This document shows positions 1-64,000 of a DNA stretch of 64,000 bases, one piece after another (positions within the stretch are counted from its first letter, which is position 1; every line of letters starts with the position of its first letter). This DNA comes from a virus (lineage: Duplodnaviria; Caudoviricetes), in the IMG/VR virus record IMGVR_UViG_3300035663_000005, positions 22,728 through 86,727 of that record. One strand, 5' to 3'. Made by a program: the position numbers and the translations under genes. Under the pieces are notes generated by a model. The model was not told the DNA's origin, ran no database searches, and saw only the letters and a program-made list of their open reading frames with translations.

Positions 1-265
1 TATGTTTTTCAAGAATATTTCCTAATTTTTGTGTTCCATTATTTCCATCCCCAACAAACGCTTGTTCAAAAGAACAAGTTCTGTTAAAAAATCTACTTTT
101 GTCTGCATCAACAACTAACCCTTTCCATCCTAGTTCTTCAAATAAAAGACTGTTACTTTCAGTTTTTAAATCTGCACATCCACCACCAACATCAACAAAA
201 TATCCTTGTTGTTGATTATTTAAAACTAAATTAACAAAATCATCTTGAGACGCTTGAGAATACAT
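1..265 (-). CDS. FkbM-family methyltransferase (3' end outside window)
   Basis: Manual translation MYSQASQDDFV..GYFVDVGGG..SNSLLFEELGWKGLVVDA is a typical FkbM N-terminus. Confidence 0.8.
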   Translation of the reverse strand, partial: MYSQASQDDFVNLVLNNQQQGYFVDVGGGCADLKTESNSLLFEELGWKGLVVDADKSRFFNRTCSFEQAFVGDGNNGTQKLGNILEKH

Positions 266-267
266 TT

Positions 268-1146
268 TTAACTCCTTATTAATTTTGATAGTGAAGAAAT
301 AACGCTTCTTTTGTACGGTTCTGGAATATTCTGAACACACGCATCGTCAATAAGGTGTATGTTGTTTACATCTCCGCCATGTTGATATGCAAAATCTTTA
401 ACTGCCCAAACTTTGTTTGAATCCATGAACATCGTAGACCCCAACCATCTTATACAATGGTCTCCCCACCTTTTGTAAAAGATGTTGTTGGTGTTTTCCA
501 AATATTTGAAATAATTTTGATAATTTTCAGAACGATAGAAATCCATATCAACAATTTCAAAATTTGTATTATAAACTTCTAAATTCCAATCAAAGTTTTT
601 ATTTGTTAGTTTTTTATAATTTTCTTCCATAAACTTTTTGGTAGTTTCCCACAATCCTTCACAAGCCCAAGGAGCATCATATCCTATATTTTCCATATGC
701 GCGTATTGATACTCATTTTCTCTCATGGTAACAAAAGGATCTTTAGTAATTTTTGTTAAAATAAAAGAATCAGAATCCAATCTCATGTACCACTTATATT
801 TTTCTAGAGAAGGATGATTGAAAATTTGACCGCCATAAAAACGGCACATATGTCTGTAACCCATTCTAAACTGATCTAGTGATGGACTGTATAAACTTGG
901 GTCTGAAGAAATTCTTTCTGGCAAAATAAATTCTAGTTTTTCAAACTTTATACTCGGCATAAATCCTAGAGACAAATTTATTTCTGTTAAAAGATTTGTT
1001 ATGTCTATTTTTGTTAAATCATCATAAAAAACTATAACAGGATAATTTGCTTCTCTGTTAAAATTTTTATATAAAAAATTTATACTGTGTTTAAAAACCC
1101 ACAGGTCATTTTTTCGTGTCATGTATACGATTGCAGCATTTTCCAT
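268..1146 (-). CDS. GT15 (Kre2/Mnt1-like) alpha-mannosyltransferase
   Basis: GYRHMCRF, YMRLDSD, NFEI, RWGD motifs of GT15. Confidence 0.85.
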   Translation of the reverse strand: MENAAIVYMTRKNDLWVFKHSINFLYKNFNREANYPVIVFYDDLTKIDITNLLTEINLSLGFMPSIKFEKLEFILPERISSDPSLYSPSLDQFRMGYRHMCRFYGGQIFNHPSLEKYKWYMRLDSDSFILTKITKDPFVTMRENEYQYAHMENIGYDAPWACEGLWETTKKFMEENYKKLTNKNFDWNLEVYNTNFEIVDMDFYRSENYQNYFKYLENTNNIFYKRWGDHCIRWLGSTMFMDSNKVWAVKDFAYQHGGDVNNIHLIDDACVQNIPEPYKRSVISSLSKLIRS

Positions 1147-1164
1147 AATATAATTCCTCGTTTA

Positions 1165-1899
1165 TTATTTCCACCAATCCAACTTATAATCAAACGCATT
1201 TAAATTATTAGGTGTGTCTATAATTGATGGATATTCAGAATAATCTATCTCATCAGTTGAAATTCCTAAAGATTTGTTTATATAACAGCATTCTACAACT
1301 GCTGGAATTTTAGTACCGCCATAATTGGGTATATCATAATTATTCCCATGAATGTGAACTAGGTGATGGGTGTTTTTAATAGAAACAAGAACATCATATA
1401 TTGAGAGTAAATTACGACTTCTATAATACTCATTGTTCAAATGATATTCGACAACCAACATATTCATTTTAGACTTATGCGAATCGCTCATATTTCGCAA
1501 AACTTCCCATTCTCCACCTTCTATATCCATTTTTAGAAAATATGATTCGGTAGGTATAATTGAATCTATATTATTTCCATCAACATTGGTACGATGATAA
1601 TTTAAATTTAAACTTAAATTTTTAGACCCGCCAATAGGAATATCTTTTAATTCTGGCAAATGATTGAAATCTGGTTCTGCATCAAAACATTCAGTTTTTT
1701 TGCCTATACTAGCCAGATGTTTTTCTACATCAATATTACCTCCCGCACCAAAGCATAAACAAAATTTTGTATTTGCTAACACCTCATTAATTATTACATA
1801 ACCACCATCATTTCCGGCTCCTATTCTTCTTTTAGTTCCGGTGCATTTATTTGGTGTTAAAACTTTATGCATCATTTGTATTGCTGAAATATTATTCAT
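1165..1899 (-). CDS. FkbM/Methyltransf_22-like methyltransferase
   Basis: RIG..NDGGY, LKMDIEGGEW, VEYH, HIHGNN motifs. Confidence 0.8.
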   Translation of the reverse strand: MNNISAIQMMHKVLTPNKCTGTKRRIGAGNDGGYVIINEVLANTKFCLCFGAGGNIDVEKHLASIGKKTECFDAEPDFNHLPELKDIPIGGSKNLSLNLNYHRTNVDGNNIDSIIPTESYFLKMDIEGGEWEVLRNMSDSHKSKMNMLVVEYHLNNEYYRSRNLLSIYDVLVSIKNTHHLVHIHGNNYDIPNYGGTKIPAVVECCYINKSLGISTDEIDYSEYPSIIDTPNNLNAFDYKLDWWK

Positions 1900-1902
1900 A
1901 AT

Positions 1903-2862
1903 TTATTCCCCCCAATTCAACCAATCGGGGCCACCTGCTCTATATCTATTCAAACCAAAAGTGATTCTTTCTAGACGACTGTAACGATGTTGAAGATTTC
2001 CATCAACCAAGTTCATAATCTTCTCGGGAATTTCCTTGTTGGGCAAAGCACTCATGTTGCGTATCCAAGCATTGTGCTGATAGGTGATATCGCTCACCGC
2101 CCAAACCTTGCTTGGGTCTAACAACATCTTTACACCTAGCCAATGGATTGGAGCATCGCCCCATCTCTTATAGAAGATGTTGCCTGTCTGATCCAACTGG
2201 TCAAAGTATGCCATATACTTTTCGCTTCTAAAGAAAGAGAACTTGGCAATTTCAAAGTTTGTGTAGAACAACCGACAACTCCACTTTCCGTCAACCATGC
2301 TGTCTTCAAGGTCTTTAGTCATCGGAATGTTGTGAGCCTTCATAAATCGCTCAGTTTCATCCCAAAGTCCTTCAGCAACGCTTGGAACTTCTCCATCTTC
2401 GGTTGCCATGAAAGCATATTCTTTATCATTCTTTGCCATGTATTCAAATGGATCGTAATTGATTGGCGAATAGATGTAAGAATCAGAATCCAATCTCCAA
2501 TAGTAATCATACTTCAGCAGGCGAGGATCGCGGTAAATACCACCTGAATGATAACGGCACATGTGGCGATATCCCATCCAAGCCTGATCCAAAGGAACAG
2601 TATACTTTGCTGGATCTTCCGAAACCCATTCGGGCATTACGAAATCCAAATGTTCAAACTTCAAATTTGGAATGAATCCCAAGTTCTTGTGAAGTTCAAC
2701 CATTAGATTGGAAATAGTTCCCTTGTCTATATCGTCGTGGAAAACAACGATTGGATATTCTTGAATATGCTTGAAATTCCATCCAAGCATACTAAGACTG
2801 CGATACAAAAGAGGAACATCCCTCATGCGTGACATATAAATTATTGCAGCATTTTCTGCCAT
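1903..2862 (-). CDS. GT15 mannosyltransferase, paralog of 268..1146
   Basis: GYRHMCRY, YYWRLDSD, TNFEI, RWGDAPI; shared ENAAI.YM N-terminus. Confidence 0.85.
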   Translation of the reverse strand: MAENAAIIYMSRMRDVPLLYRSLSMLGWNFKHIQEYPIVVFHDDIDKGTISNLMVELHKNLGFIPNLKFEHLDFVMPEWVSEDPAKYTVPLDQAWMGYRHMCRYHSGGIYRDPRLLKYDYYWRLDSDSYIYSPINYDPFEYMAKNDKEYAFMATEDGEVPSVAEGLWDETERFMKAHNIPMTKDLEDSMVDGKWSCRLFYTNFEIAKFSFFRSEKYMAYFDQLDQTGNIFYKRWGDAPIHWLGVKMLLDPSKVWAVSDITYQHNAWIRNMSALPNKEIPEKIMNLVDGNLQHRYSRLERITFGLNRYRAGGPDWLNWGE

Positions 2863-2863
2863 C

Positions 2864-3649
2864 TTATTTCCTCATGTTGAAAAGTTTTTCGTAGGTCAAT
2901 TTCACACCTGCTTCAAGACCATAAATATTTATTTCTGGTAGATTACTTTCCCCGCAGTAAAACTCCAAGTTTGTTGGATTTTGAACAATGATAGGAACAG
3001 TATGATGTCCCATAAAATTTATGAGTCTGGCTATGTTCTTCAGAGTGTGTTTTTGTTCATAGGAGCAGTTAACTTCTTTGCTTGGATTTAAGTCGTTGAT
3101 GTAGAATTCCACCAACGATATCAAATCTTTCATGTAGAAAAAATCCATGATTCTATTGGTGTGTATCTGTATTGATTCGTGATTCAAGTAACGACTTATA
3201 CTTGCTCGTATGAAACGAGTTTCAAGTTCATTTTCATCAAACACTCCAAATATTCTTATGTTGTAAAACTGCTCGGTGTCTTGTATAGACTTTGCTATTT
3301 CTGTTTTGCTTAGGCTGTATTGGGTTTGATGAAAGAATTCCGCACCAGACCCAAAGTGTATTAGTCTTCCAAACCTACCTCTGTTTGCAAGCATATTACG
3401 ATACATTTTCAGGTTTTGATCTCGGACATGATGATTATCTGATTTAAGCCTACTACCACCAGTTGCAGCCGCGTGAATAACCACATCAAAAATTTTACCT
3501 GAAAACCAGTTGTTTAGCGCATCAGTATCAGAAAGATCAAAATCTGTTCTAGAAATAGTGGTGACATTATACCACGAACAAAGTTCACGATTTAGGCTCT
3601 TAGCAATATAACCATTTCCTCCGGTTATCAAAATACTTGGTTTTTTCAT
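2864..3649 (-). CDS. NAD-dependent epimerase/dehydratase/reductase
   Basis: ITGGNGYIA Rossmann motif, YSLSK catalytic motif. Confidence 0.85.
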   Translation of the reverse strand: MKKPSILITGGNGYIAKSLNRELCSWYNVTTISRTDFDLSDTDALNNWFSGKIFDVVIHAAATGGSRLKSDNHHVRDQNLKMYRNMLANRGRFGRLIHFGSGAEFFHQTQYSLSKTEIAKSIQDTEQFYNIRIFGVFDENELETRFIRASISRYLNHESIQIHTNRIMDFFYMKDLISLVEFYINDLNPSKEVNCSYEQKHTLKNIARLINFMGHHTVPIIVQNPTNLEFYCGESNLPEINIYGLEAGVKLTYEKLFNMRK

Positions 3650-4122
3650 TTTCGGAGATTTAAATAAGTTGGTTGAGGATTCATTAAAATTTCAGCAAAT
3701 TGTTGTACCATATCTTCTACAGTTTCAGGATGCAAAACTCGCAAATTTTCTAGAGTTCTCATTATTCTTTTGTCATCTTCAGCCCAATGAGAAAATCCCA
3801 AGTATCCGTAATCTTTGCCCCTGCCACCACCAATAATATTTACAGGAATATTTTCATGGCTTAGATAATTTCGTATCATCTCAAAAGGTCTGTAGATTGC
3901 AAACGGGCTAATGGAGTATACTAACGGAATCTTTCCATCCATAGCCAGCCCTATAGCCATACCCATCATAGCCATTTCGGACGATCCAACATTATAAAAC
4001 CTGTCCTTGTAATCATCTCGGATTTTGTCCCACAACCCGTAACCCAAATCTCCTGTTATCAGGTAAATTTTTGAGTTTGCTGCCATCGCACCATGAAGAA
4101 GTTCAGCAAATTGCTTTCTCAT
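3646..4122 (-). CDS. Transketolase-like, pyrimidine-binding subunit
   Basis: TGDLG, NVGSSEMAM, RPFE, SH motifs. Confidence 0.85.
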   Translation of the reverse strand: MRKQFAELLHGAMAANSKIYLITGDLGYGLWDKIRDDYKDRFYNVGSSEMAMMGMAIGLAMDGKIPLVYSISPFAIYRPFEMIRNYLSHENIPVNIIGGGRGKDYGYLGFSHWAEDDKRIMRTLENLRVLHPETVEDMVQQFAEILMNPQPTYLNLRK

Positions 4123-4739
4123 TTTAACATCTCCAATGCTTGCTTGTAATCGGATTCTTTCATAACATGATAGTGTGCATTCAGTCCCTTCAGAAAGGGA
4201 AACTGTTCAACTGTGGTATAGTGTATCTTAACTTCTGGAAGGAATGCTTTCAACCTCTCTGTTAGGTATTGCTGATCCACCTCCATGTAAGCAGCATAAC
4301 CATTCACATTAACATGAACCTCAATATTTTTAATGTTCTGCTCACGAATTGTTTTCAAAGCCTCCCACACGCTACCCTCGGCACACTCTCCATCACTCAC
4401 AAGAACCCAAACCTTTCTCTTTGGATTGGCTACGGCTCTTCCTAATGCAATTGTGATGCCCAAGCCAAGACTTCCCGTTGAGCAGTAGATTTGATTAGCC
4501 TCGTCACGATGTGGATGTCCACCGTGCTTCAAAAACATCTCTTCGGCATTTATACCACGGTGCTTCTGTAGGCAAGCATATAAAGCAACGGCAGCATGTC
4601 CCGAAGACAAGATGAAAATGTCATCCTTGCCCATGTTGCCATACATTTGATCTATAATATCAACAGATGAGAAGTAACTACCTAAATGACCTAGTTTATG
4701 CTTAAATGCTATATCCAATATGATTTTCTTCAGATTCAT
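4119..4739 (-). CDS. Transketolase-like, TPP-binding subunit
   Basis: GHLGS, LSSGH, GHP, STGSLGLG, SDGEC.EG..WEA. Confidence 0.85.
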   Translation of the reverse strand: MNLKKIILDIAFKHKLGHLGSYFSSVDIIDQMYGNMGKDDIFILSSGHAAVALYACLQKHRGINAEEMFLKHGGHPHRDEANQIYCSTGSLGLGITIALGRAVANPKRKVWVLVSDGECAEGSVWEALKTIREQNIKNIEVHVNVNGYAAYMEVDQQYLTERLKAFLPEVKIHYTTVEQFPFLKGLNAHYHVMKESDYKQALEMLK

Positions 4740-4743
4740 ATTA

Positions 4744-5694
4744 TTACCAAATAAAATTATTACTGTAGTATTTGACTATTCTAGGAAGTTCTTCATCAAA
4801 CTTTTTGACAGGATTCCATCCTAGTTTTCTAAGTTTAGAATCATCTAGAGCGTATCGGACATCTTGTCCAGGTCTGCTATAAGAAAAGTCTATGTAATCC
4901 GAATATTGGTCTTCTCTAATACCCAAACCCTGTAAAATCTTCGCAACAGTTTCCATATTTGATTGTTCAAATCCGCCGCAAATATTGTATATTTCATTCT
5001 TGGTTTCTGATTCAATTATGGTGATGATGGCTCTAGCAGTATCTTCAGCATGTAACCAATTTCGTATTGGAGTTCCATTGTTGTGTAGAGGAATCTTTCT
5101 TCCCAAATGCAAATACTTACAAACCTTAGGTATAAGTTTTTCAACATACTGACCTATACCATAATTATTCGTAGGTCTAACTATTACATACGGAATCTTG
5201 TAAGTTCTTGCCCAAGCCAACACCAACATGTCGGCGGCCGCTTTAGTGGCTGAGTATGGATTTGATGGCTTAAGTAAATCTTGTTCAGTATGTGCACCAT
5301 CTGCAATATCTCCGTAAACTTCATCTGTGCTGAAGTGTAAAAAGGTCGGAGTTTTTCCATTCTCTTGCCGATAGTTCTTAATCAACTCAAGTATGTTGTG
5401 AACTCCATTGATGTTTGAACTTACAAAATCATCACTATTGCTTATGGAATTCCCAACATGAGTTTCTGCGGCGATGTTTATAATGTAGTCGCAGTCATAA
5501 AGAAACTTAAGATCATTAATGTCAGATTGAACGAACGAAAAATTTGGATATTCCAAAAATTCTGTTAAAAGATCATCGTTAGCAGCGTAAGTGATTTTAT
5601 CAACTCCTTTAACCCACCATCCCTTCTCTAGGCATAGTCTAGTCACATAAGAACCTATAAATCCTAAGCATCCTGTTACATAAACAACTTTCAT
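4744..5694 (-). CDS. rfbB: dTDP/NDP-glucose 4,6-dehydratase
   Basis: TGCLGFIG, AAETHV, STDEVYG, PYSATKA, NNYG..Q..EKLIP, RPGQD.RY. Confidence 0.9.
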   Translation of the reverse strand: MKVVYVTGCLGFIGSYVTRLCLEKGWWVKGVDKITYAANDDLLTEFLEYPNFSFVQSDINDLKFLYDCDYIINIAAETHVGNSISNSDDFVSSNINGVHNILELIKNYRQENGKTPTFLHFSTDEVYGDIADGAHTEQDLLKPSNPYSATKAAADMLVLAWARTYKIPYVIVRPTNNYGIGQYVEKLIPKVCKYLHLGRKIPLHNNGTPIRNWLHAEDTARAIITIIESETKNEIYNICGGFEQSNMETVAKILQGLGIREDQYSDYIDFSYSRPGQDVRYALDDSKLRKLGWNPVKKFDEELPRIVKYYSNNFIW

Positions 5695-5725
5695 ATTTGC
5701 CTCAATTCTACTTCTGTCATATGAT

Positions 5726-7063
5726 TTATTGATTAATAATAGACAAACGAACTCTTTTTTTAGTCATAAAGTCATTCAAAGTTGATTCAATGTAATCTAA
5801 TTGTTCATCTGTTATGACTGGACTGGTTCCCAAGAAGAAGGTATCGGTTGTAACCTTTCTTGCATTAGGATAATCTTTAACTACTCGCTCGGTATCCATC
5901 AGCCCTTCATACGCAGGCTGCAACATGATGTTGCCTGCAAAATACGGTCTAGTTTGAATCTTATTCTCTTCAAAGTAGTCAACAATATCCTTACGCTTGA
6001 ATGGACATCCATCTTTCAAGGTTACTGCAAATGCAAACCAAGCAGGATCAGAATTTTCGGTTGCTTTTGGAATGATGAAATGCTCTTCATACTTGGAGAA
6101 CATTTTGCACAGTCTAGCATGGTTATGCTTTCGTATTTCAATAATCTTGGGTAATCTCTTAACCTGAACAAGACCCATAGCAGCCTGTTGATCTGTAGGC
6201 TTCAGATTATAGCCTATCTCATCGTACACATATTTGTGGTCAAAAATCTCATTCGGTAGAGCAGGAAGCCAATTTGAAAATCTCTTCTTGCAACTGCCGT
6301 TCTTCAGGAAATTCGCCTGCTTTCCTACGCAATAGCAACCTCTTCCCCACTCACGGAAACTTCTAGCAACAATCTCTTGTTCCTTGGTGCGAGTTGCAAC
6401 AAACCCACCTTCTCCCATAGTAATATGATGAGCAGGATAGAATGAACATGAAGCAAACTCACCAAAACTACCTAGAGATTTTCCTCCATAGGTTGATCCT
6501 AAAGCATCACAACAGTCTTCAAGTAAAACAAGATTGTATCGGTTAACAATCTCCATCAATCTATCCATGTTTGGAGGATTACCTAGAACATGAGCAAAAG
6601 TTATGATACGACACCCCTCCTTTGCTCGTTGTTCAACCTGATTCAAATTCAGATTCAAAGTATCCAAATCTATATCAACAAACACTGGCTCAAACCCGAC
6701 TTGAAAAATTGGATTTATTGTAGTTGGGAATCCCGCGATGGGGGTTATTACTTTGGTTCCTTTTGGAAAATTGTTCAAACGCTTAGAGGTCATACACGAC
6801 ATCATTATCAAGTTTGAACTGCTTCCGCTGTTAGTTAAGATACCGTACTCTTTGCCCATCAGATTAGGGAACTGATGCTCAAAGCGAATACCGTTTGATC
6901 CTAAAACCAACCAGCCCTCAAGCAGAGTCTTTACCGATTCGGTGTATTCCTCCGTACCAAAATAAGGCCCTGCGTACTGAACCCAATCAACACCAGCCTT
7001 CCATTTCTTAGAAACTTGCTTTTCCTTAATGAAGTCTTCAACTGCTTTGAGTATGTGTTCCAT
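5726..7063 (-). CDS. rfbH: CDP-4-keto-6-deoxyglucose 3-dehydratase (E1, RfbH/DdhC)
   Basis: NSGSSSNL, EDCCDALG, SFYPAHHITMGEGG (His in place of the PLP Lys), WGRGCYC...C, DHKY. Confidence 0.9.
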   Translation of the reverse strand: MEHILKAVEDFIKEKQVSKKWKAGVDWVQYAGPYFGTEEYTESVKTLLEGWLVLGSNGIRFEHQFPNLMGKEYGILTNSGSSSNLIMMSCMTSKRLNNFPKGTKVITPIAGFPTTINPIFQVGFEPVFVDIDLDTLNLNLNQVEQRAKEGCRIITFAHVLGNPPNMDRLMEIVNRYNLVLLEDCCDALGSTYGGKSLGSFGEFASCSFYPAHHITMGEGGFVATRTKEQEIVARSFREWGRGCYCVGKQANFLKNGSCKKRFSNWLPALPNEIFDHKYVYDEIGYNLKPTDQQAAMGLVQVKRLPKIIEIRKHNHARLCKMFSKYEEHFIIPKATENSDPAWFAFAVTLKDGCPFKRKDIVDYFEENKIQTRPYFAGNIMLQPAYEGLMDTERVVKDYPNARKVTTDTFFLGTSPVITDEQLDYIESTLNDFMTKKRVRLSIINQ

Positions 7064-7069
7064 AATGTA

Positions 7070-8632
7070 TTAGTGTATTCCAAATCCCCAATCATTCAAG
7101 TTGGGAATACTATATTTTGCCACACTTTCTTTGATAAACTTATACTTATAGTTAGTAGTTAAATCTTGATCTTTGTAAATATCAGAACGAACTTTTAATG
7201 GAAAAGAGAATTCTACAGGTTGCCAAGAAAAATTGTTAACAGATTTGTCGTACTCAGTATAATCAATAACATCTGCATTGAATCTATTCTTGTTAACATA
7301 GTCTTCAATTTTCCAGTAGTATTGCTTGACGGCAACAGCCTTTTTATCAATCCATTGCAAATGAGAAATGAAGATGTTTGGAACCTGAATTGATAACTGA
7401 TTCTTTGGTACAGGAATATGCTCAGAATGCATTTGACGATTCTTAAAAACTGCTCTATTTGAATAGGAGCCTATACGATCAACCCAGTGTACTTGCCACT
7501 TTCCGTCTGTTCGTATTTGATTTTTGCCTACATATTGAATCCATTGGGTATAGAACAAAGTATCCTTATGGGCTTCAAGTATTCCTTTCAACTGCTCTTT
7601 TTTAATGTTGCCATCTATGTACTCATCTGAATCCAAGCAAATTATCTTGCTAGAGTATTTAAATGCTTCATCAAATAACATCTGTCTGGCATCAGACTCT
7701 ATTGCCAACTTATCGTTGTCCCTGTCTATTTTTAAAATACTAACAATGTTATACTTGTTTGCATTTTCTTTTAGATACTGGTAAGTTCCGTCTGTACAAC
7801 TATCCAATAAGAACACAAAAGCATCAGCATACTCCTTCCACACAGGAAGCATTTCTTTCAACAAGAACAGTTCATCTCTAGTTCTAGTAATTTGCACTAT
7901 CCAGCCATCATTAACCTTTGGTTCAATACTTTTAAAGCCATTTGCTTTTCGTGTTTCATAAATTGCTTGGTCAACACTCGCACCCACTCGCATATTATGC
8001 TGCATCAATTCGTCTTGGTTTTCTGCCCACTTATGAACTATGGGGCGACGGTTAATGTGTCGTAGAACACCCATCTGTTCAAACACTTCAGTCTGCTCGT
8101 TGTCACACCATTCAGACTTGTAATCTGGATGGTAGATGTATCCAAAGTGCTCGTACAGTTTTCTCCCAATAACAGGTAGAGTGATTAGAGTCTTAAATCC
8201 GTCTGCTCCCTTTTGCTCTAGACGAGGATCATTGTTATAATTCAAAGATCCATTGGTATCGGGAAATTCTTTAGCCATATCTTCGGCTATGATATCGTCC
8301 CAACCATTTTCAACAGGCTCCATATCATCTGCTGTAGAAATCAAAATATCCCAAGGAGTGCTTGGAATATTTCGGTTTATTGCAGATATCTTCCCATTCT
8401 TCTCCCCGTAGAAATAAAGAACCGAGCACATATCAGTCTTAGGTAAGTTGTCCAAAAAGTGCTTGATTCTAGGATTGTTTAGGAGTAGATCATCAGAATC
8501 CATGCTGATTACATAAGTGATCTTATGCTTACCTGATGCCTTTTCCATATAGGCACGAAGGTTGTTCATAAACTTACCTGGTCTCTGACGAGTTGGGTAC
8601 TTTAAAAGAAGATGCTTCTTATCGCTTTGCAT
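7070..8632 (-). CDS. Two-domain GT-A/GT2 glycosyltransferase
   Basis: N-half paralogous to 9217..9906 (PTR.RP, ADDM, WCDNE); C-half has LDSCTDGT and CLDSDE. Confidence 0.75.
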   Translation of the reverse strand: MQSDKKHLLLKYPTRQRPGKFMNNLRAYMEKASGKHKITYVISMDSDDLLLNNPRIKHFLDNLPKTDMCSVLYFYGEKNGKISAINRNIPSTPWDILISTADDMEPVENGWDDIIAEDMAKEFPDTNGSLNYNNDPRLEQKGADGFKTLITLPVIGRKLYEHFGYIYHPDYKSEWCDNEQTEVFEQMGVLRHINRRPIVHKWAENQDELMQHNMRVGASVDQAIYETRKANGFKSIEPKVNDGWIVQITRTRDELFLLKEMLPVWKEYADAFVFLLDSCTDGTYQYLKENANKYNIVSILKIDRDNDKLAIESDARQMLFDEAFKYSSKIICLDSDEYIDGNIKKEQLKGILEAHKDTLFYTQWIQYVGKNQIRTDGKWQVHWVDRIGSYSNRAVFKNRQMHSEHIPVPKNQLSIQVPNIFISHLQWIDKKAVAVKQYYWKIEDYVNKNRFNADVIDYTEYDKSVNNFSWQPVEFSFPLKVRSDIYKDQDLTTNYKYKFIKESVAKYSIPNLNDWGFGIH

Positions 8633-9233
8633 ATTGTATACTTTCCGATGTTCTGTCATCATATTGATAGTAGTGAAGCACTTTATCTAGGTGAGTTTCG
8701 CTTGTAACAAACGGATACATTCGTGAACACCAATCAATATCCTCTCCGTATGAAACTGCTCGGAACGGAATGTTTTTGGCAATCTTGCTTGCCCACACGC
8801 ACATATGATATGGAGGACGCTTAATATCTCCTAGTGTTCCATCAGGATTGTGCTTAAGTCCTTCGTGAGGATTTCCCATACGGAAATCAACCTTGAACTC
8901 CTTACCATTTACCGTGCAATGCTGTTCAAAGGTAATCACATCCGCAGGGTTATTTCTCAAGGTTTCAATTAAAGTTGAGATATAATCTTCAGATACGGCA
9001 TCATCATCATCCAAGAAAGCAACCCACTTACCTCTAGCAGATTGAATCAAAGCCTGACGCTTTTCTCCGATGCTCATGCTCTTATTGTCTACAAGAGTTA
9101 AAACCTCAACGCAGGTCTCATTTCCAATTTGTTCCAACAAACGATTGTAAGTTGGAATCAGACACTTCTCAAGACGAGAAGGAATAGAAAGAATCAGAAC
9201 ACTTAGTAAAATTTGATTAGGAGGCGTTGGCAT
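8619..9233 (-). CDS. GT2 glycosyltransferase
   Basis: SIGEKR, ARGKWVAFLDDDD, GED..W. Confidence 0.85.
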   Translation of the reverse strand: MPTPPNQILLSVLILSIPSRLEKCLIPTYNRLLEQIGNETCVEVLTLVDNKSMSIGEKRQALIQSARGKWVAFLDDDDAVSEDYISTLIETLRNNPADVITFEQHCTVNGKEFKVDFRMGNPHEGLKHNPDGTLGDIKRPPYHMCVWASKIAKNIPFRAVSYGEDIDWCSRMYPFVTSETHLDKVLHYYQYDDRTSESIQYAKR

Positions 9234-9906
9234 CTTGAGTTAAACCGAAACCGGCTTCCTTTCTTCTATTATAAACTGCGTTATCATGGGCGTACAGTTC
9301 TCGGTTCTCGTTACGCATATACAACGCATCTATTCCAATCTCTATCCAAAAGTGGCGAATGATAACGCGGTCAATATAAGTTGCTTTTCTTAGAATTCTG
9401 CTGACATCAGTAAACTCATTGTCAGGAAACACACTGATGTATTCAGGATTGTAGATATAACCAAATCTTTCAAAATACTTCTTACCAAAGATGCAAAGAG
9501 TATTTAATCTCTCGCCCTGCTTGCCGTCATTGTAATGTAGAACACCATCACCATCAGGATAGTAGGTCTGCATATCCTGCATGATAATATCATCGTATCC
9601 ATGAATCTGAGGAATCATATCGTCTGATGCAAGCAACATTACATCATAATCGCCTGCGTGTTCTAAATCAGCATTAATGGCTTCTATCTTGGTTTTTGAA
9701 TTGCCCCAAAATGCTTTAACCAAATCGCCTTGCTTGGCAATCCAGTTACGCATACCAGGATTGTTCATAGTGACATCATCAAGATCAAACGAGCATAAAA
9801 ACCTAACATCGTGCTTACCGGATGCCATATTCTTATAGAGATTAAATACCTCCATGAACTTAGCCGGACGCGATCTGCTTGGTAACTTAATCAGAAGTTT
9901 CGCCAT
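9217..9906 (-). CDS. GT2-like glycosyltransferase
   Basis: PSRSRP, KIEAIN, ASDDM, PDNE. Confidence 0.75.
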   Translation of the reverse strand: MAKLLIKLPSRSRPAKFMEVFNLYKNMASGKHDVRFLCSFDLDDVTMNNPGMRNWIAKQGDLVKAFWGNSKTKIEAINADLEHAGDYDVMLLASDDMIPQIHGYDDIIMQDMQTYYPDGDGVLHYNDGKQGERLNTLCIFGKKYFERFGYIYNPEYISVFPDNEFTDVSRILRKATYIDRVIIRHFWIEIGIDALYMRNENRELYAHDNAVYNRRKEAGFGLTQDANAS

Positions 9907-10186: not shown

Positions 10187-11219
10187 TGGTGTTTGCTCCT
10201 TCCTGGTCAGAGCCATACTTGAACTCTTTGGCTGCTGCTGTTTCCAAAGCCTTCATCACTTCTTCGGTGAAATACTTGGTTGGATTCTTCACAATCTGGC
10301 TTTCGAAGGCGGTTGTGCCGTTTGGCAATTCAATCTTGGTGGAAACCTTCTTGAACACTCCCTGCTTCAGAGCAAGGTCAACCAAACCGTAGTATCGGTC
10401 AAGTCCCTTATCAAAGGTTAGAAGAACATCAATCATCTTATTCTCTCGGGTAAGACGACCCTTGTAGAGTTTGCAATGAACAATATTGCCAACCACTTCG
10501 TCATCCACCTTGTGCTTCTTCTTGGAAAGATACACGATGGTTGAAGCCGCATACTTAAGTCCTGTGCCACCACCCATCTCCTTGGTTGGCACATACGCAC
10601 CCACTACCTCGTAGGTGTGATTGGTGACAATCATAGGAATGTTATGCAGACCCAACTTCAAGGTAAGCACACGGAACGCACCCTTGATAACCTGAGCGCG
10701 AGTCATGTCTCGCACTTCCTTGCCTTCCAAGGTATCGTTGGTTTCCTTAGAAGTGCTCAACATTCCGAGCGAGTCCAACACCACAAAGAACGGCTTACGC
10801 TTCTTCTCGTCCAACTTACCGTAGTTGTCGATGATTTGCAGCAACTGATGACGGAACTGCTCCACGGTTGCCACAGGGAATACGGCAACGCGATTCGGGT
10901 CAAGTCCGCGTGACTTAATCATATCGCTAGTTACAGCCTGTTCGGAGTCAAAGTAAAGAATCGCTCCTTCAGGATTATCGTTCAAGAACTGTGCGGCGAT
11001 ACCCAAAGCAAAATAAGTCTTGCCTGTGGCAGACTCGCCTGCGATACCTAGAATCTTGTTGTTGGCAATACCGCCAGTCAGAGAGCCTGACAGAAGAGCG
11101 TTGAAAGAATACGAGCCAGTATCCACAAAGCCCGTGATATCTCCTTCAACTCCATCTTCGGCTAGCGAAGCAAACTCATTACCTGATGCACGAATCATAC
11201 TCTTTAAAAAGTCACTCAT
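10155..11219 (-). CDS. uvsX: UvsX RecA-like recombinase
   Basis: [35 protein letters not shown]. Confidence 0.95.
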
Positions 11220-11409
11220 TGTGTATTCTCCATTGTGTTATTGTATCACACTTTTTGTTTCCAGTCAAGTCTTTTAAGAGCGTCCCTCACTCTTTTCCGT
11301 TTTTCTCGTAGTTCATGTTCATGGTATCGTTTATCTTTAATGTGTTCGGTTATTATGTGAAAAACCACTAATATTGTAAAACATAAACTAGTTATAAAAA
11401 TTATTCCAT

Positions 11410-13947
11410 TCATGTCCATGTGAACAAGCCTTCTAGACTGCTAACTTCTCGCATCTGCCACCCGATTACATTTAAGATTGCGTTCAGAGGTTCTTCGAAC
11501 GACTTCTCAAATTGAGTGTCATAGTCTATGTATTTCGCCTCTAGTCCAAACTCCTTGGGAATTCCGGCTGAAAAAGAAATAACCTTGTCACGAATCGGAT
11601 TGGGAACTCGCAGATAAACATACTTAATTTTCTCACCATCGCCAATTTTAGGATATCGCTTTCCTAAATCCTTTTCACGAAGCCAATGGTTATACAATAA
11701 GGCTCCCTTAACATGAAGCGGAGTAGACTTGCGATAGATGGTGGTGTCATCCCGATACTCTTTCAATCCGTTGCATCCACGCGGGAACGCAATTTCTTCC
11801 ACCGAACGAGCAAAGAAGTCAGTCTTAAACTCGGCAACATATTCTCGCAATTCAGATTCTTTGCCCACCATGATAATACCGATGGCTTTCTTTAAAGCAT
11901 CACGAACAATCTCAGGGGTGCTACTCTTCGCGGTTTCAAGACCCATGATTTTAGTTTCAGGCTTGCTCAAAAGAACATCATCTTCTCCCATCCAAATGCT
12001 CAACATGTAACGCTTCTTGGCTGTCCAAATGCCCTTGGAAGAAATGCCTTCTCGCTTCATTCTCATCTTTTGAGCGTAGGCGTTCTGTTGTTCTGCAAGA
12101 GCAGCGTATTGCTTATCAATGAACGGCTGCAACACCTCGTTGCAGAACTTGTTCAAGAACTTTGTAATCTTTTGTGGGTCAGTTTCGTTGGGCATCACTT
12201 GCTTTACAAGCGAGCCTAATCGCAGATATACGGAATCGGTATCTGATGCTATCACATAATCGACTCCTGTGGTCTTCAGGGTTTTATTCAAGAATCCATT
12301 CAAGCCGTTCTCAATCCAACGAATGGATACCTGTCCTGAGATGGTGATAGCCTCGGCAATCTCTTGGTCGTAATAGCGGAAGTATTGATTGCCGCAAGCA
12401 CCGAATGCCGAGTTCAATTGAATCTTACGAACCAACTGAAAGTTGTGGAACTTTGTAATGTCAAGTTTTAGTTGTGCTTCCTGTTCAGGTGTAGGATTCA
12501 CAAGTTTCTTTAAAGCGGCTTTGGCTTCCAACATCTTCTTCTTGAAAGCCTTGCGTTCCTCATACATGGTTTCCATAAGTTTCGGCAAGAATCCTTGTGT
12601 ATCCTTGCGAAACGCTACACAGTTTCCTGCTACACTAAGATTCTTGGCTCGCATGTTATCAAGATAATCTCTCGCGCCTGCGCTCGCACCCGCGCCCGCG
12701 AGGAAGTCGTTCACACTAAACTTGTTGCGAGTTCCTGCATTAGTCTTGGTTTCAGGAGACAGATTGTATTGCATGATAAGATGCGGATACAGCGAGTCCA
12801 AGTCAAAACTCACAACCCAATCGTGCGCTCCAACGATAGGGTCTTTCACATACGCACCTTCAAACTTATCTTCCTTGTCTTCCGCATTTCCCTTCATGGG
12901 AATCGCAATTCGCTTCTTGGTTAGGTGATGGTAGATGATGGCATCCCATGTGCGAACCTGCGAGAACACATCGTTCAGATTCACCTTGGCGGAATACGCA
13001 AGTGCTAGAGCAAGTTCCATCAGTTTAAGTTTGTTCTCAAGCATTCCTACAAGTAGAGTATCGTGGTGATTATACTCCATGAATCGTTGGAAATCATTCT
13101 TGTAGAATTCTGCTAGAGTCCCATCGTAGTGTTTCTTGCGCTCGCCCAACTCCACCCAAACAATATGGTCAAGTTTATAGGTTTCGCGGGTCACATAAGT
13201 GAACTTACGATACAGGTCAAAGTAGTCCAAGGTAGCAATACCTAGCAGGTCATACACCTCGTTCTTCTTGTTCATTACTTCCACTTCGCGGGAACGAATC
13301 TCTCGCCAAGGAGAAAGACGCATGGCTTCCTTCTCGTCAAACAGGCGAGTGATACGATTCACAAGATACGGAATATCAAAGAAGTTGACATTCCATCCTG
13401 TCACAATGTCTATATCCATTGCTTCCCACGCTGCAAGGAAGTCTCGCAACATGTGCTTCTCATCGTCGTATTGGAAACACTTGGCATCAGGAATGTTAAA
13501 CTCACCCAATCCAAACACCAACACCTTGTTTCCCACCTTCAGAGTGATGGCGTTCACTCGTTCGGTTGCAGTCTTGATGGACGGAAAGCCTCCCTCGCAT
13601 TCCGTCTCAATATCAATAAAAGCCACCTTTAGTTTAGACGGGTCGTATTCCACTTCATTCGGAAACGCTTCACCAATGTATTGATACAACCACTCCGTAT
13701 TTCCAAATATTTCAAAGCCTGCCACTCCCTTGTATTCGTTGATGAAATCCTTGGAATCGCGGATGGAACCAGGCTTGAAAGGCTCAACATACTTGCCGTC
13801 AAGAGTCTGCCACTCAGTCTTTTTACCCTTCGCAGGCACAAACAAAGTAGGCATGAACGGAACCTTTTCGGCTATCCGCTTGCCGTTCTCGTATCCACGA
13901 TAAAGGATATGAGAACCTCTAACAGCAACATGGGTGTAAAATTTCAC
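11410..13947 (-). CDS. gp43: Family B DNA polymerase (T4 gp43-like)
   Basis: DIET exo I, SFDLDSLYP, KIQLNSAFG, SDTDS, AKKRY; no intein or intron seen. Confidence 0.97.
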   Translation of the reverse strand: MKFYTHVAVRGSHILYRGYENGKRIAEKVPFMPTLFVPAKGKKTEWQTLDGKYVEPFKPGSIRDSKDFINEYKGVAGFEIFGNTEWLYQYIGEAFPNEVEYDPSKLKVAFIDIETECEGGFPSIKTATERVNAITLKVGNKVLVFGLGEFNIPDAKCFQYDDEKHMLRDFLAAWEAMDIDIVTGWNVNFFDIPYLVNRITRLFDEKEAMRLSPWREIRSREVEVMNKKNEVYDLLGIATLDYFDLYRKFTYVTRETYKLDHIVWVELGERKKHYDGTLAEFYKNDFQRFMEYNHHDTLLVGMLENKLKLMELALALAYSAKVNLNDVFSQVRTWDAIIYHHLTKKRIAIPMKGNAEDKEDKFEGAYVKDPIVGAHDWVVSFDLDSLYPHLIMQYNLSPETKTNAGTRNKFSVNDFLAGAGASAGARDYLDNMRAKNLSVAGNCVAFRKDTQGFLPKLMETMYEERKAFKKKMLEAKAALKKLVNPTPEQEAQLKLDITKFHNFQLVRKIQLNSAFGACGNQYFRYYDQEIAEAITISGQVSIRWIENGLNGFLNKTLKTTGVDYVIASDTDSVYLRLGSLVKQVMPNETDPQKITKFLNKFCNEVLQPFIDKQYAALAEQQNAYAQKMRMKREGISSKGIWTAKKRYMLSIWMGEDDVLLSKPETKIMGLETAKSSTPEIVRDALKKAIGIIMVGKESELREYVAEFKTDFFARSVEEIAFPRGCNGLKEYRDDTTIYRKSTPLHVKGALLYNHWLREKDLGKRYPKIGDGEKIKYVYLRVPNPIRDKVISFSAGIPKEFGLEAKYIDYDTQFEKSFEEPLNAILNVIGWQMREVSSLEGLFTWT

Positions 13948-14216
13948 TTGTCCTCTCGTTCAACCATTGAAATCCAATCCTGATGAATCAGATTGTTTCT
14001 GCCGTATCCTTGTCCACGAATCTTGGAAATATCCCACAGCACCTTGTCGCCAACCTTGACATCTTCGGTGAGTTTATCGCCAACAGAAATCACCGTGCTC
14101 CACACCAACTGCGAGTTAATCTTCTCGGTGTAGATGATACCTTCTGAGGTCTTCTTTTCACCACCACCAACAGTCTGCACTTCAATCCACTTACCAATCG
14201 GTCTCAACTTGTTCAT
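13944..14216 (-). CDS. groES: GroES-like co-chaperonin
   Basis: LRPIG, EKKTSEGII, VISVG, VKVGDKVL. Confidence 0.8.
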   Translation of the reverse strand: MNKLRPIGKWIEVQTVGGGEKKTSEGIIYTEKINSQLVWSTVISVGDKLTEDVKVGDKVLWDISKIRGQGYGRNNLIHQDWISMVEREDK

Positions 14217-15160
14217 GCTAAAAATCCTTGTAATGAGTTTGCCACTTCTTCACGAATTCGGTCTTCCGCAATCTTAACATACTCGGGGTTCAATTCGGTT
14301 CCCACATAGTTTCTACCATTGTTCAAAGCCACCACAGCGGTTGTGCCGCTGCCTGTGAACGGGTCAAATACCGTTCCACCAACAGGCGAACCTGCAAGAA
14401 CACATGGAGTAATTAGTTCCTTGGGATACACCGCAAAGTGTGCGCCCTTGTATCCCTTGGTGTTCACAGTCCACACGGAACGCTTGTTCTTCTTGCCGTC
14501 TGCGCCCCACAATCTCTCAGGCTCTAAAGCAGGGTCACGGGCTCCCTTATCTTCAGGTTGTGTGCGATTCTTGTTGCCAGGAGCATGCGGAGGACTAACA
14601 GCGGCTTCCTTGATGGCTTCATGGTCATAATAGTAGTGCGACTTCTTGGAGAGCATGAAAATGTATTCGTGAGCACGGGTGCATCGGTCGGTAACACTCT
14701 CAGGCATAGGATTAGGCTTGTGCCAAACAATATCTTGACGCAACCACCAACCATCGGCTTGCAAGGCAAACGCTACTCGCCACGGAATTCCAATCAGGTC
14801 TTTCGTCTTTAATCCCTTTTGGTCTTTACGATTGCCTGGCACAAAGTCGGTTGGCATACCACGCTGACCACCGATGGTTTGTGGTGGAGGAGCACAATTC
14901 TTTGCTGCCATGTAAGAATCGCCAAGATTCAACCAAAGTGTTCCGTCATCACGAAGAATACGACGCACCTCGCGGAACACCTCCACCATCTTCTGCACAT
15001 ACTCTTCTACAGTTTCTTCCTGACCGATTTCCTCATCTCCACCCTCGTAGGAACGCAAGCCGAAATACGGTGGGGAAGTTACGCAAGTGTGAATGCAGCC
15101 ATCGGGCAGCGTCTTCATGCCTGCTATACAATCACCAAGAATGATGCGATGTGTGTTCAT
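14213..15160 (-). CDS. Beta-class N4-cytosine/N6-adenine DNA methyltransferase
   Basis: TSPPY near N-terminus, HFAVYP, DPFTGSGTT near C-terminus; start refined to MNTHRII. Confidence 0.9.
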   Translation of the reverse strand: MNTHRIILGDCIAGMKTLPDGCIHTCVTSPPYFGLRSYEGGDEEIGQEETVEEYVQKMVEVFREVRRILRDDGTLWLNLGDSYMAAKNCAPPPQTIGGQRGMPTDFVPGNRKDQKGLKTKDLIGIPWRVAFALQADGWWLRQDIVWHKPNPMPESVTDRCTRAHEYIFMLSKKSHYYYDHEAIKEAAVSPPHAPGNKNRTQPEDKGARDPALEPERLWGADGKKNKRSVWTVNTKGYKGAHFAVYPKELITPCVLAGSPVGGTVFDPFTGSGTTAVVALNNGRNYVGTELNPEYVKIAEDRIREEVANSLQGFLA

Positions 15161-15558
15161 CCAATATCTCCATACTTGGTTCCACGCACAAAGAACTGCT
15201 CTTCGTGCCACTCAAAACCAAAGCATTCTCTAGCATAATTCAAAATGATATCCTTGTCAAACTTGTTGCAGGAATAAACATCAAGCGTAATGAATCGCTT
15301 TGGCTCCATTGAGTGAATCTGAATACCACTCTCAATGAGTGGAACCCAACCACTCACTCCTGCCTTGTCGGGATATAGTTCCGTGCCGTGATTGGTTGGA
15401 CCGTGCATTACTACAGGCTGACTCATGCGAGTCATACCAATCTTGTCTACAACTCGTTCAAGAAAGCGATAGTGCAACTCCAAGTCATCGGCTGCACCGA
15501 CGCGGCAATTATACATGTCCAAATAGTAAGAATATCCGAATGGTTTAATTTCACTCAT
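15157..15558 (-). CDS. speD: S-adenosylmethionine decarboxylase-like proenzyme
   Basis: LDMYNC, GVSG...LIESGIQIH (E-S pyruvoyl cleavage site), LDVYSC. Confidence 0.8.
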   Translation of the reverse strand: MSEIKPFGYSYYLDMYNCRVGAADDLELHYRFLERVVDKIGMTRMSQPVVMHGPTNHGTELYPDKAGVSGWVPLIESGIQIHSMEPKRFITLDVYSCNKFDKDIILNYARECFGFEWHEEQFFVRGTKYGDIG

Positions 15559-16505: not shown

Positions 16506-16578
16506 TAAGTATCAATAGAATTGTTGTTACTCACAACAACCCTACATTTTTTTTACTTGACAAATAGAATCAAAAAAC

Positions 16579-62235: not shown

Positions 62236-62634
62236 TTAATTGCTAATAAGTTTAAAAAGATTTTTCATCGTCCAAGCCCACGGAACCTTGAATGTATGAT
62301 TTTGAGTTCGAGCAAACAAAGAAAGAATATCTTGTGCTCCAACAGGATTTGCAGAATGCACAACAAGAAGAGTGGAGTCTAAAACACCACCATCATCAAT
62401 TTGCTGACGAACCGCTCGGGCAAATGGCAGCGAAGTGGCATACTCACCACCAGGCCCCTCACCCAAATCGTGATCGAAGCAAATCACATCATAATGATTG
62501 TTCATTAGCAAATCAAAAGCCTCTGCACAAGTATAGGCAGAGTCTACCCGACAATCTGAATTGTTTCGAATGAATGCGGCGTGACGATCAACATCGTCAT
62601 CAAGAACCAACACAATAATAGGGTGTGTATCCAT
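62236..62634 (-). CDS. Cyclic-phosphate-processing receiver-like domain protein
   Basis: LDDD..R, FDHDLG, VHSANPVG. Confidence 0.75.
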   Translation of the reverse strand: MDTHPIIVLVLDDDVDRHAAFIRNNSDCRVDSAYTCAEAFDLLMNNHYDVICFDHDLGEGPGGEYATSLPFARAVRQQIDDGGVLDSTLLVVHSANPVGAQDILSLFARTQNHTFKVPWAWTMKNLFKLISN

Positions 62635-62720
62635 ATCAAAATTATATCACATTTCCTAAAAAAGTCAACTCATTTCACAAAAATTAAAATAAATAGTATT
62701 AGACATACAGGAGGTTTTGT

Positions 62721-62801
62721 ATGCGTAAATTTCAAAAAATATTGGTTTGTGCTTGTTCTTTTTTAATTGGCGTAGTTATAGCCAGACTTTTGGGATTTTA
62801 A
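62721..62801 (+). CDS. 26-aa hydrophobic peptide
   Basis: AGGAGG RBS; MRKFQKILVCACSFLIGVVIARLLGF. Confidence 0.45.
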   Translation: MRKFQKILVCACSFLIGVVIARLLGF

Positions 62802-62808
62802 ATTAAAA

Positions 62809-63504
62809 TTACATCGGCGTAAACCAAAGACCATCTCTTTCACTTGGTGTTCTTCCAGGATTTAAAATATCTGAGGGAGATCGTCTTATGGGAGGTGGAG
62901 GAGCAATTACTGGAGGTAAAGGAGGGGTTCCTCCATTTTGTATGCAAGCATCGTAGGCTTTCTTTCTCATATCACAGCAAGTGCATACCTTATTTGGATT
63001 ACCAGTACCACATATTGCTCCTGTAGCCCTACAGTATTCAGTATTAGCATCTTCCACTTCTTTTTCGTATTGCTTTCTACCCGTTTCTACTATGTTATGA
63101 TATAAGTCGCCACATTCTGTACAAGCAGCAACTTGCAAGGGATGCGATTGTCCTCCGCAACCTTTTGATTTGTAAATACAATTAGGCCATGTACTAGAAT
63201 CATCTGCACAAGCATCTTGCTGACACATCTGCCCGCCTGCTCCAGGAGCATAGTAAAACCCGTTTCTATCTTGAACGCATAGAGGTTTGTCTTGACATGC
63301 TAATCTAGCCTCAATTGCTTTTTGCATCACACCAGGAACTAAAACTGTACTGTTGTTTGAAGGTGGAGGAGGCGCATATTTTCCAAACATTTTTTCGTGA
63401 GCGATTCGTATTCTATCATCTCTTTTTTTCGCAGCAGCGTTAACACAATTTGTGTAAATTGAGTCTGCGTATTGGTCACATGTTAGTAAAGTTGGCGTTG
63501 CCAT
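62809..63504 (-). CDS. Cys-rich protein
   Basis: Many Cys, Pro-rich tail; CATAAATA upstream. Confidence 0.65.
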   Translation of the reverse strand: MATPTLLTCDQYADSIYTNCVNAAAKKRDDRIRIAHEKMFGKYAPPPPSNNSTVLVPGVMQKAIEARLACQDKPLCVQDRNGFYYAPGAGGQMCQQDACADDSSTWPNCIYKSKGCGGQSHPLQVAACTECGDLYHNIVETGRKQYEKEVEDANTEYCRATGAICGTGNPNKVCTCCDMRKKAYDACIQNGGTPPLPPVIAPPPPIRRSPSDILNPGRTPSERDGLWFTPM

Positions 63505-63535
63505 ATGATTGTTCCCTTTAAATATTTATGAAAAA

Positions 63536-64000
63536 TTAAACTCCAATTCCGCCGCCACTACTTATAACGCCGTCTATAACACCAGGCAAAGAACGAAGAG
63601 CAAGACCAAATACTTCTACAATATCTCCGAAATTACAAGGAGAAAGTTCGGGTTCGGGATGCCAACCACAAGCACACCTGTGAGAGTGTACATAAAGACC
63701 ATACGGAGTCATAACTTGACAGTCAGTAGAAGTAGTAGAAGTACAACTCGGGCCGCAAGTTATCCAAGTATTCACGATGTATGATGATGGGGGCTCCACA
63801 TCTCCGTTAACTAAACCACATTTTGTGCAATCAGGCCCTGGCGTACTTCCTCCAAATCCTATTCTTGGTGGACAATTAGATTTCCACCCGTTCACTCCAG
63901 GCGTTGGTTCATTATTCATATTCATGTAATTTGAATTTATATTATCGTAATAAGTTGGAATGTACTTGTTGCCCATCAATAGAGTTAAACCAACTCCTTG
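63536..64000 (-). CDS. Cys-rich domain protein (5' end outside window), paralog of 35481 C-domain
   Basis: Frame open to window edge: QGVGLTLLMGNKYIPTYYD..CPPR..H.CACGW..SPC. Confidence 0.75.
   Translation of the reverse strand, partial: QGVGLTLLMGNKYIPTYYDNINSNYMNMNNEPTPGVNGWKSNCPPRIGFGGSTPGPDCTKCGLVNGDVEPPSSYIVNTWITCGPSCTSTTSTDCQVMTPYGLYVHSHRCACGWHPEPELSPCNFGDIVEVFGLALRSLPGVIDGVISSGGGIGV

Follow-up and report, generated by a model that had tools for sequence, protein, structure and literature searches.

The DNA analysed here, called the window, is a stretch of 64,000 nucleotides, bases 22728–86727 of the 86,727-base IMG/VR record IMGVR_UViG_3300035663_000005 (G000 below). The record comes from a T4-like myovirus that is uncultured and was sampled in lake water, and CheckV estimates that it covers about 39% of the genome. 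The subject of this report is the complete absence of two palindromic tetramers, AGCT and ACGT, from this DNA, including its tRNA genes. The replication module is of the T4 type, with a family B polymerase (gp43), a UvsX/RecA-type recombinase, the clamp gp45, the clamp loader gp44/62, and RegA. The polymerase gene was used as the anchor for finding relatives:

11410–13947, minus strand: T4-type family B DNA polymerase (gp43)

The record contains 18 tRNA genes, 17 of which are in the window. All 18, and 102 of the 121 called open reading frames (ORFs), lie on the minus strand, and the base skew of the record agrees with this bias (T > A and C > G on the plus strand). The 22.7 kb upstream of the window encode a DnaB-type primase-helicase, tail fibres, ThyX, and lysozyme.

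The window polymerase is at most 50.5% identical to polymerases of cultured phages, and its top matches are marine cyanomyoviruses. A megablast search for cultured relatives with 20 kb returned only matches of tRNA size. Lake-water metagenome runs (n = 24) contain 69–100% of the sampled words of a 9.9-kb stretch, and three of the runs are flagged as possible sources of the record. Contigs near-identical to the window were obtained from four lake-water runs. These facts indicate that the sequence is real and recurrent, and not an artefact.

Absence of AGCT and ACGT from the window

AGCT does not occur on either strand of the window. The mean count in 100 dinucleotide-preserving shuffles is 233 (standard deviation 16), and none of the shuffles reached 0. 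The second-order Markov expectation is 188 for the window and about 265 for the whole record, in which AGCT is also absent. A reading made earlier from the letters of the window (the sequence-only reading) had proposed such an avoidance, and the Markov tetramer counts on the window and the record bear it out: the observed/expected ratio is 0, not near 1. That reading overlooked that ACGT is likewise zero, against expectations of about 151 in the window and about 193 in the record (second-order Markov). Both words are at zero in each 2-kb bin, across local GC contents of 0.29 to 0.55.

Other palindromes are partly avoided. The lowest eight of the 256 tetramers in the window are all palindromes (chance 3e-11). 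GTAC is at 0.29 and GCGC at 0.38 of expectation. GATC (115 occurrences, 0.43 of expectation), GGCC (56, 0.43), CCGG (57, 0.39), and TCGA (89, 0.38) had been described as common; at 0.38–0.43 of expectation, they are in fact about 2.4-fold depleted. In the record, these six words are at 0.24–0.45 of expectation. Unlike AGCT and ACGT, the partly avoided palindromes are patchy across the 2-kb bins.

Among 6-mers, the screen covered words or word pairs expected 10 times or more. ACGCGT (0 observed/11 expected), CCATGG (0/14.5), TCATGA (0/20), and TCGCGA (0/12) are absent, and CTGCAG (1/25), CCGCGG (1/14), and TGATCA (1/10.5) occur once each. The pairs GGCACC+GGTGCC (0/23) and GACGCC+GGCGTC (0/12) are two of the four words of GGYRCC and of GRCGYC, respectively. 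Thus, of the nine lowest words or pairs, seven are palindromes and the other two fall within degenerate palindromes. GGWCC is also depleted (21/66, 0.32). Apart from these, the non-palindromic pentamer pair CCCAG/CTGGG is at 0.29 of expectation in the record.

To examine the coding sequences, synonymous codons were shuffled 200 times within each of 108 called genes (77,490 bases), preserving proteins and codon usage. The shuffles give 244 ± 13 AGCT and 178 ± 10 ACGT, with minima of 206 and 151; the observed counts are 0 and 0. The component codons are in ordinary use (AGC 253, GCT 579, ACG 173, and CGT 346). Yet each codon junction that would spell either word is empty, as follows (hyphens mark codon boundaries):

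AGC-T: 0 observed, 48 expected
NAG-CT: 0 observed, 83 expected
NNA-GCT: 0 observed, 156 expected
ACG-T: 0 observed, 33 expected
NAC-GT: 0 observed, 103 expected
NNA-CGT: 0 observed, 93 expected

None of the 295 pairs of Lys, Gln, or Glu with a following Leu is spelled NAG-CTN. The codons for Asn, His, Asp, and Tyr end in T in 221 of 221 cases before Val, while elsewhere 34–52% of them end in C. As the codons are used but the word-spelling junctions are not, selection acts on the DNA word and not on codon usage.

The polymerase gene was compared with those of 10 word-tolerant relatives, which contain 67 AGCT and 42 ACGT sites; these loci are related and not mutually independent. At 17 of these AGCT and 12 of these ACGT sites, the window encodes the same two amino acids, spelling them with AACT, AATT, GGCT, or AGTT in place of AGCT, and with ATGT and others in place of ACGT. 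The replacements are synonymous and varied, with AACT and AATT the commonest for AGCT and no single substitute word. Such variety is what undirected mutation filtered by selection gives.

Compensated D-stems of the tRNA genes

All 17 tRNAs of the window pass the Rfam tRNA model with 46–77 bits (cut-off 29). Eight of them have an altered D-stem, and these are the top eight Rfam scores in the window (66–77 bits):

22493–22564, minus strand: tRNA-Thr(tgt), D-stem GCAC/GTGC, arm TAGCACA, 72.5 bits
22569–22642, minus strand: tRNA-Val(tac), D-stem ACTC/GAGT, arm TAACTCA, 66.7 bits
23707–23780, minus strand: tRNA-Asn(gtt), D-stem GCAC/GTGC, 70.9 bits
25292–25367, minus strand: tRNA-Pro(tgg), D-stem GCAC/GTGC, 68.6 bits
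25372–25443, minus strand: tRNA-Gly(tcc), D-stem ACTC/GAGT, 76.7 bits
28948–29021, minus strand: tRNA-Ala(tgc), D-stem GTTC/GAAC, arm TAGTTCA, 66.4 bits
29999–30072, minus strand: tRNA-Lys(ttt), D-stem ACTC/GAGT, 73.3 bits
30077–30152, minus strand: tRNA-Arg(tct), D-stem GCAC/GTGC, 67.9 bits

The canonical TAGCTCA is not used, just as the sequence-only reading had described. It is replaced by TAGCACA/GTGC in the tRNAs for Thr, Asn, Pro, and Arg, where the pair 12:23 is A:U (U:A in the canonical arm). In the tRNAs for Val, Gly, and Lys, the replacement is TAACTCA/GAGT, and the pair 10:25 is A:U instead of G:C. In tRNA-Ala, it is TAGTTCA/GAAC, and the pair 11:24 is U:A instead of C:G. The change is matched on the opposite strand of the stem in all eight. 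The unpaired A9 is also retained in all eight, although a change of A9 alone would abolish AGCT. In the tertiary structure of tRNA, the pairs 10:25 and 12:23 join base triples, and thus the D-stem changes are unlikely to be free.

Across records, AGCT is found in none of 77 tRNAs of AGCT-free records and in 11 of 22 tRNAs of tolerant relatives (Fisher p = 6e-9). Duplicates and near-duplicates of counted records (L003, L007, L008, and L038) were omitted. The tRNAs with AGCT are distributed as follows:

AGCT-free: this record 0/18; G005 0/17; G009 0/11; G004 0/5
AGCT-free: L063 0/19; L039 0/4; L025 0/2; L006 0/1
Tolerant: G001 3/7; G002 2/5; G003 3/7; L072 2/2; L080 1/1

The tolerant G002 has a tRNA-Lys with an acceptor stem identical to that of the window tRNA-Lys, and it retains TAGCTCA. 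A listing-level literature search found no published description of word avoidance extending to tRNA D-stems with compensatory pairs. This extension into tRNA structure is apparently previously undescribed.

Several further observations concern the tRNA genes. ARAGORN predicts a tRNA-Ser with the anticodon ACT at 28457–28542 on the minus strand (Rfam 54 bits), which is also seen in G005; in bacterial and phage tRNAs, a wobble-position A is unusual. The tRNA gene outside the window is a tRNA-Ile with the anticodon TAT, at bases 15767–15841 (minus strand) of the record and distant from the main tRNA cluster, and tRNAs of the same kind are present in G001, G002, and G009. In the lake-water runs, the contig depth over the tRNA genes at 22288–29591 of the window is 5–25 times that of neighbouring genes, presumably due to tRNA-like sequences of other organisms placed there.

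Relatives and gene content

Relatives from other metagenomes were collected as 80 IMG/VR loci around polymerase homologues (46–100% identity) and 77 further loci found with the DNA methyltransferase described below, a search that gave 80 loci, three of them already in the polymerase set. The polymerase loci form a mosaic of losses: both words, AGCT only, ACGT only, GATC, CCGG/GGCC, CGCG, or nothing. Both words are absent in the clade of the window, down to 69% polymerase identity, and in several deeper branches. The sets of lost palindromes also differ among the methyltransferase-found loci.

Two long relatives lack both words. G005 (119,266 bases) has AGCT 0 observed/351 expected and ACGT 0/306, and is about 77% identical to G000 over 70 kb. 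G009 (156,618 bases, 86% complete; loci L239–L246) has AGCT 0/358, ACGT 0/256, and CCGG 0/274. It aligns to G000 at the DNA level over 5.6 kb only, and its AATT is at 0.52. Of all possible single changes in the window, about 3.3% would introduce AGCT or ACGT. From the approximately 16,000 differences between G000 and G005, it can be roughly estimated that about 500 site-creating changes were rejected. Contigs of the four lake-water runs were also compared with the window at 11000–30900. None of the 40 variants listed creates either word (1.3 expected, P of zero = 0.27); there are 486 further single-letter variants beyond those listed.

Four tightly packed genes adjoin the polymerase gene, at 13944–16505 on the minus strand. 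They encode a small GroES-like protein and the following three proteins:

14213–15211, minus strand: DNA methyltransferase, N6_N4_Mtase (PF01555, E 2.4e-53)
15157–15558, minus strand: S-adenosylmethionine (SAM) decarboxylase, SpeD-like (PF02675, E 1.5e-14), whose end overlaps the methyltransferase gene
15558–16505, minus strand: Mom-like DNA modification protein (PF25680, E 2.7e-11; phrog_1384, E 2.4e-17)

The likely start of the methyltransferase is the Met at residue 18 (position 15160). It carries TSPPYF at residues 45–50, ahead of the SAM-binding DPFTGSGTT near residue 285. It matches beta-class N4-cytosine/N6-adenine enzymes, with 2zie, CcrM, M.MboIIA, M.RsrI, and M.PvuII as the solved relatives, 2zie and CcrM being the best. 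The SPPY form of the motif is typical of N4-cytosine enzymes, and by this motif the window enzyme is probably one of these. In cyanophage records, some homologues are annotated as cytosine methylases and others as adenine methylases. In the search for cultured relatives, identity is below 60% in all 618 matching records. A host or donor search of bacterial genomes with this protein gave 49 loci from unrelated phyla, the best at 53–59% (59% over a segment). No second DNA methyltransferase was found in the record.

The presence of SAM-using and SAM-decarboxylating enzymes beside a DNA-modifying enzyme might indicate a modification other than simple methylation. Among palindromic tetramers, only AGCT and ACGT would fit the target of Mom of phage Mu. 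A role of the Mom-like protein in the loss was considered and rejected: its gene is confined to the closest relatives, and the loss is much wider. In addition, among 39 window proteins there is one match to PF23780 (E 5e-12), the SAM lyase family, to which the anti-restriction enzyme of T3 that degrades SAM belongs; here, the match co-occurs with a SAM-dependent methyltransferase in one genome. The match could not be assigned to an ORF and is absent from the 20 ORFs checked.

The other genes of the window include a sugar-nucleotide/glycosylation cluster and the following:

268–9906, minus strand: sugar-nucleotide/glycosylation cluster
21868–22488, minus strand: PurM-like protein (annotated as "ferredoxin" or "PurM" in other records)
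25465–26523, minus strand: IMP dehydrogenase/GMP reductase family gene, inside the tRNA region
26914–27972: GDP-mannose 4,6-dehydratase, apart from the glycosylation cluster and among the tRNAs
62236–62634, minus strand: small protein matching the cyclic-phosphate processing receiver domain cREC_REC (PF20274)

The glycosylation cluster encodes two Glyco_transf_15-like transferases, two family-2 glycosyltransferases, a DegT-type aminotransferase, an epimerase/dehydratase, and a transketolase-like enzyme broken into two small ORFs. Its GC content is low (0.30–0.39), and it holds about 16 of the 48 GTAC sites of the record in about 12% of the length.

Neither the record nor five relatives, including one that is 86% complete, gave a match to the photosystem reaction-centre family PF00124 (psbA/psbD). 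The result speaks against a typical cyanomyovirus, though fragments cannot prove absence. The PurM-like protein is 56% identical to that of Flavobacterium phage immuto and about 35% identical to the cyanophage and pelagiphage versions, which weakly suggests a host that is not necessarily a cyanobacterium.

Causes of the avoidance and known systems

The lineage has probably long been, and still is, selected against short palindromes of the type that Type II restriction enzymes cut, by a diverse and shifting set of such enzymes in the hosts. The features that fit such counter-selection are that many words are affected and these are palindromes only, that both strands are affected independently of coding, that RNA genes are compensated, and that lineages differ. 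We infer that restriction enzymes are the selective agent and that the hosts carry enzymes cutting AGCT and ACGT. A mutation creating either word would make unmodified incoming DNA cuttable in hosts with the matching enzyme, and such variants would be lost. In genes, the words would be dodged by the synonymous choice of adjoining codons, and in tRNA genes, the AGCT of the canonical D-arm by double, pair-preserving substitutions in the D-stem. GTAC, GCGC, TCGA, CCGG, GATC, GGCC, GGWCC, and several 6-mers are partly purged here, or purged in other branches, which fits a varied and shifting restriction repertoire of the host population.

The sequence-only reading had attributed the loss of AGCT to a single AluI-like host system. 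This is partly supported, being right in kind but too narrow. Selection on the DNA word does resemble restriction-site avoidance, as palindromes are the targets, all DNA classes are purged, and relatives differ. However, ACGT is equally absent, and depletion or absence extends to six further 4-base palindromes and about nine 6-base (degenerate) ones. In the available part of PMC12707154, avoidance of short palindromes is stated in general for virulent phages, and AluI is attached to AGCT.

Several points weigh against selection by restriction enzymes. No host was linked to the phage, and no AGCT- or ACGT-cutting restriction enzyme was found in this analysis. As far as the available parts of PMC6329791 and PMC8919816 go, AGCT methylation in lake and sea microbes belongs to Thaumarchaeota, Candidatus Poseidoniia (archaea), and one marine metagenome-assembled genome, and the lake case is listed without a restriction partner. 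Pandoraviruses have lost AGCT, and no restriction system is reported for them in the available part of 10.1101/712018; AGCT loss alone is therefore no proof of restriction. The 14 kb of G000 DNA without a counterpart in G005 are already fully purged (AGCT 0/40, ACGT 0/23), which requires either very fast purging or a shared, previously purged gene pool. Finally, loss of both words accompanies one phage methyltransferase, an association not expected from restriction avoidance alone.

This last point is the basis of an alternative which we consider unlikely: that the joint loss is coupled to the phage's own SPPY-motif methyltransferase and is not ordinary escape from two host enzymes. What is selected against would then be the both-strand mark of the enzyme on A-S-S-T palindromes, attacked for example by a modification-dependent host nuclease so that its targets are removed, or else an undescribed word-reading defence would be involved. 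C-methylated AGCT and ACGT both present a purine followed by methylcytosine on both strands, the target of McrBC-type enzymes. For AGCT, this reading of the methylated site is also given in the available part of PMC12707154. Among 55 assessable polymerase loci, 15 of the 16 carriers of the enzyme lack both words (for example L006, L011, L025, and L031), the only unclean carrier being L005 (AGCT 3/16), while none of the 39 non-carriers (for example L009, L017, L030, and L036) lacks both. The carriers are interspersed with non-carriers on the polymerase tree. In the methyltransferase-found sample, both words are missing from most loci whose enzyme reaches 60% identity or more, and no avoidance is seen at 57% or below. 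The association is imperfect in this larger set, however. L100, L101, L106, and L135 carry the enzyme and keep ACGT (16/39 to 49/87), L112–L114 keep AGCT (10/23 to 31/61), and L137 and L141 retain some of both. Only three phylogenetically independent contrasts stand on supported branches (sign test p = 0.25), and there are lineages without the enzyme that have lost just one or the other word. Nor does the coupling account for the breadth of the other lost palindromes. The simplest reading of the association is shared ecology, that is, one phage group on one host group. If the coupling were true, a counter-defence gene would dictate the words that its own genome may contain.

Three other explanations are less probable still. 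It is very unlikely that nucleases made by the phage cut AGCT and ACGT in host or competitor DNA and that the phage protects itself by having no sites. Self-protection without methylation would indeed need complete absence and not mere depletion, one HNH endonuclease is encoded in the first 22.7 kb of the record, outside the window, and many ORFs have no assigned family. However, none of the 39 otherwise unassigned window proteins matches PADLOC defence or restriction models, no restriction-type or other nuclease family is among the Pfam matches of the window, and the "restriction endonuclease II" of P-SSM4 has no homologue in G000, G005, or G009. As the record covers only about 39% of the genome, gene absence is weak evidence; at least 15 further palindromes depleted or absent, together with the differing sets of the relatives, fit many external enzymes better than one internal enzyme. 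A shade less probable is an undescribed non-restriction defence, or a constraint of replication or transcription, that reads these words, as was proposed for AGCT in pandoraviruses. AGCT is wholly absent from two pandoravirus genomes, for which restriction models were experimentally rejected, but pandoraviruses lose AGCT alone and keep ACGT and GATC abundant (all according to the available part of 10.1101/712018). In the present lineage, the avoidance spans a wide range of typical Type II sites, and the hosts are prokaryotes, in which restriction is the ordinary cause. The least credible explanation, which we regard as highly improbable, is mutational decay by deamination of methylated C in the words, or an assembly or sequencing artefact. 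The C-to-T products AGTT and ATGT are among the common replacements at conserved sites, but the replacements are varied, with AACT and AATT ahead for AGCT. Decay yields depletion, neither zero in 87–157 kb nor paired changes in tRNA stems, and independent contigs and runs agree in lacking the words.

If the agent is restriction by the hosts, this lineage is among the cleanest natural demonstrations of the strength of restriction pressure. Over at least 87–157 kb, and across lineages more than 20% diverged in DNA, neither of the two 4-base words occurs even once, and part of the cost is the re-pairing, in eight tRNAs, of conserved D-stem pairs at three different positions. The pattern of lost palindromes would be a heritable fingerprint of the host restriction repertoire, and could help to assign uncultured lake phages to hosts once host methylomes are known. 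The spelling of the tRNA D-arm is a compact marker of AGCT avoidance, and the link to the methyltransferase family is a concrete, testable question.

Among known systems, the chloroviruses are another case in which a nuclease–methylase pair shapes how a virus genome deals with a short palindrome (available part of 10.1101/712018). Their sites are kept and methylated, whereas here the sites are gone, and no restriction nuclease was found by PADLOC or by a search for homologues of the P-SSM4 "restriction endonuclease II". The cyanophages P-SSM4 and S-PM2 share the gene order of the replication module with the window, and P-SSM4 has a homologue of the window methyltransferase (about 51% identity). 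Their polymerases are only about 50% identical to that of the window. In the 41–50 kb sampled per phage, AGCT is only partly depleted (11/67 in P-SSM4, 69/165 in S-PM2), ACGT occurs at normal levels (92/89 and 104/124), and there is no CCGG (0/15 and 0/27); GCGC is also absent from P-SSM4 (0/12). No avoidance was seen in samples of the same size from the freshwater S-CRM01 and Flavobacterium phage immuto. A literature search found no report of AGCT or ACGT avoidance in cyanophages.

The clade A pandoraviruses resemble the present lineage in that AGCT is totally absent, that the loss is lineage-specific, and that the replacement words are varied. They differ in their eukaryotic host and in the loss of AGCT only, with ACGT and GATC plentiful, and restriction models for them were rejected by digestion and methylation data, as presented in the available part of 10.1101/712018. 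The present loss is not of AGCT alone: the record has no ACGT, six more of its palindromes are at 0.24–0.45, and a broad spectrum of palindromes is affected.

The closest parallel is restriction-site avoidance in virulent phages. There, as here, a 4-base palindrome is wholly missing from a large genome, in both coding and non-coding DNA, and the loss is attributed to Type II enzymes of the hosts, as proposed here. Staphylococcus phage K, for example, is reported to lack GATC. Enterobacterial phages of about 350 kb without any GCGC are described in the available part of 10.1101/712018. In comparison with these cases, two words are gone at once in the present lineage (three with CCGG in G009), about 15 more palindromes are depleted, and the avoidance reaches the D-stems of tRNAs with compensatory pairs. 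It is an extreme new example of a known phenomenon.

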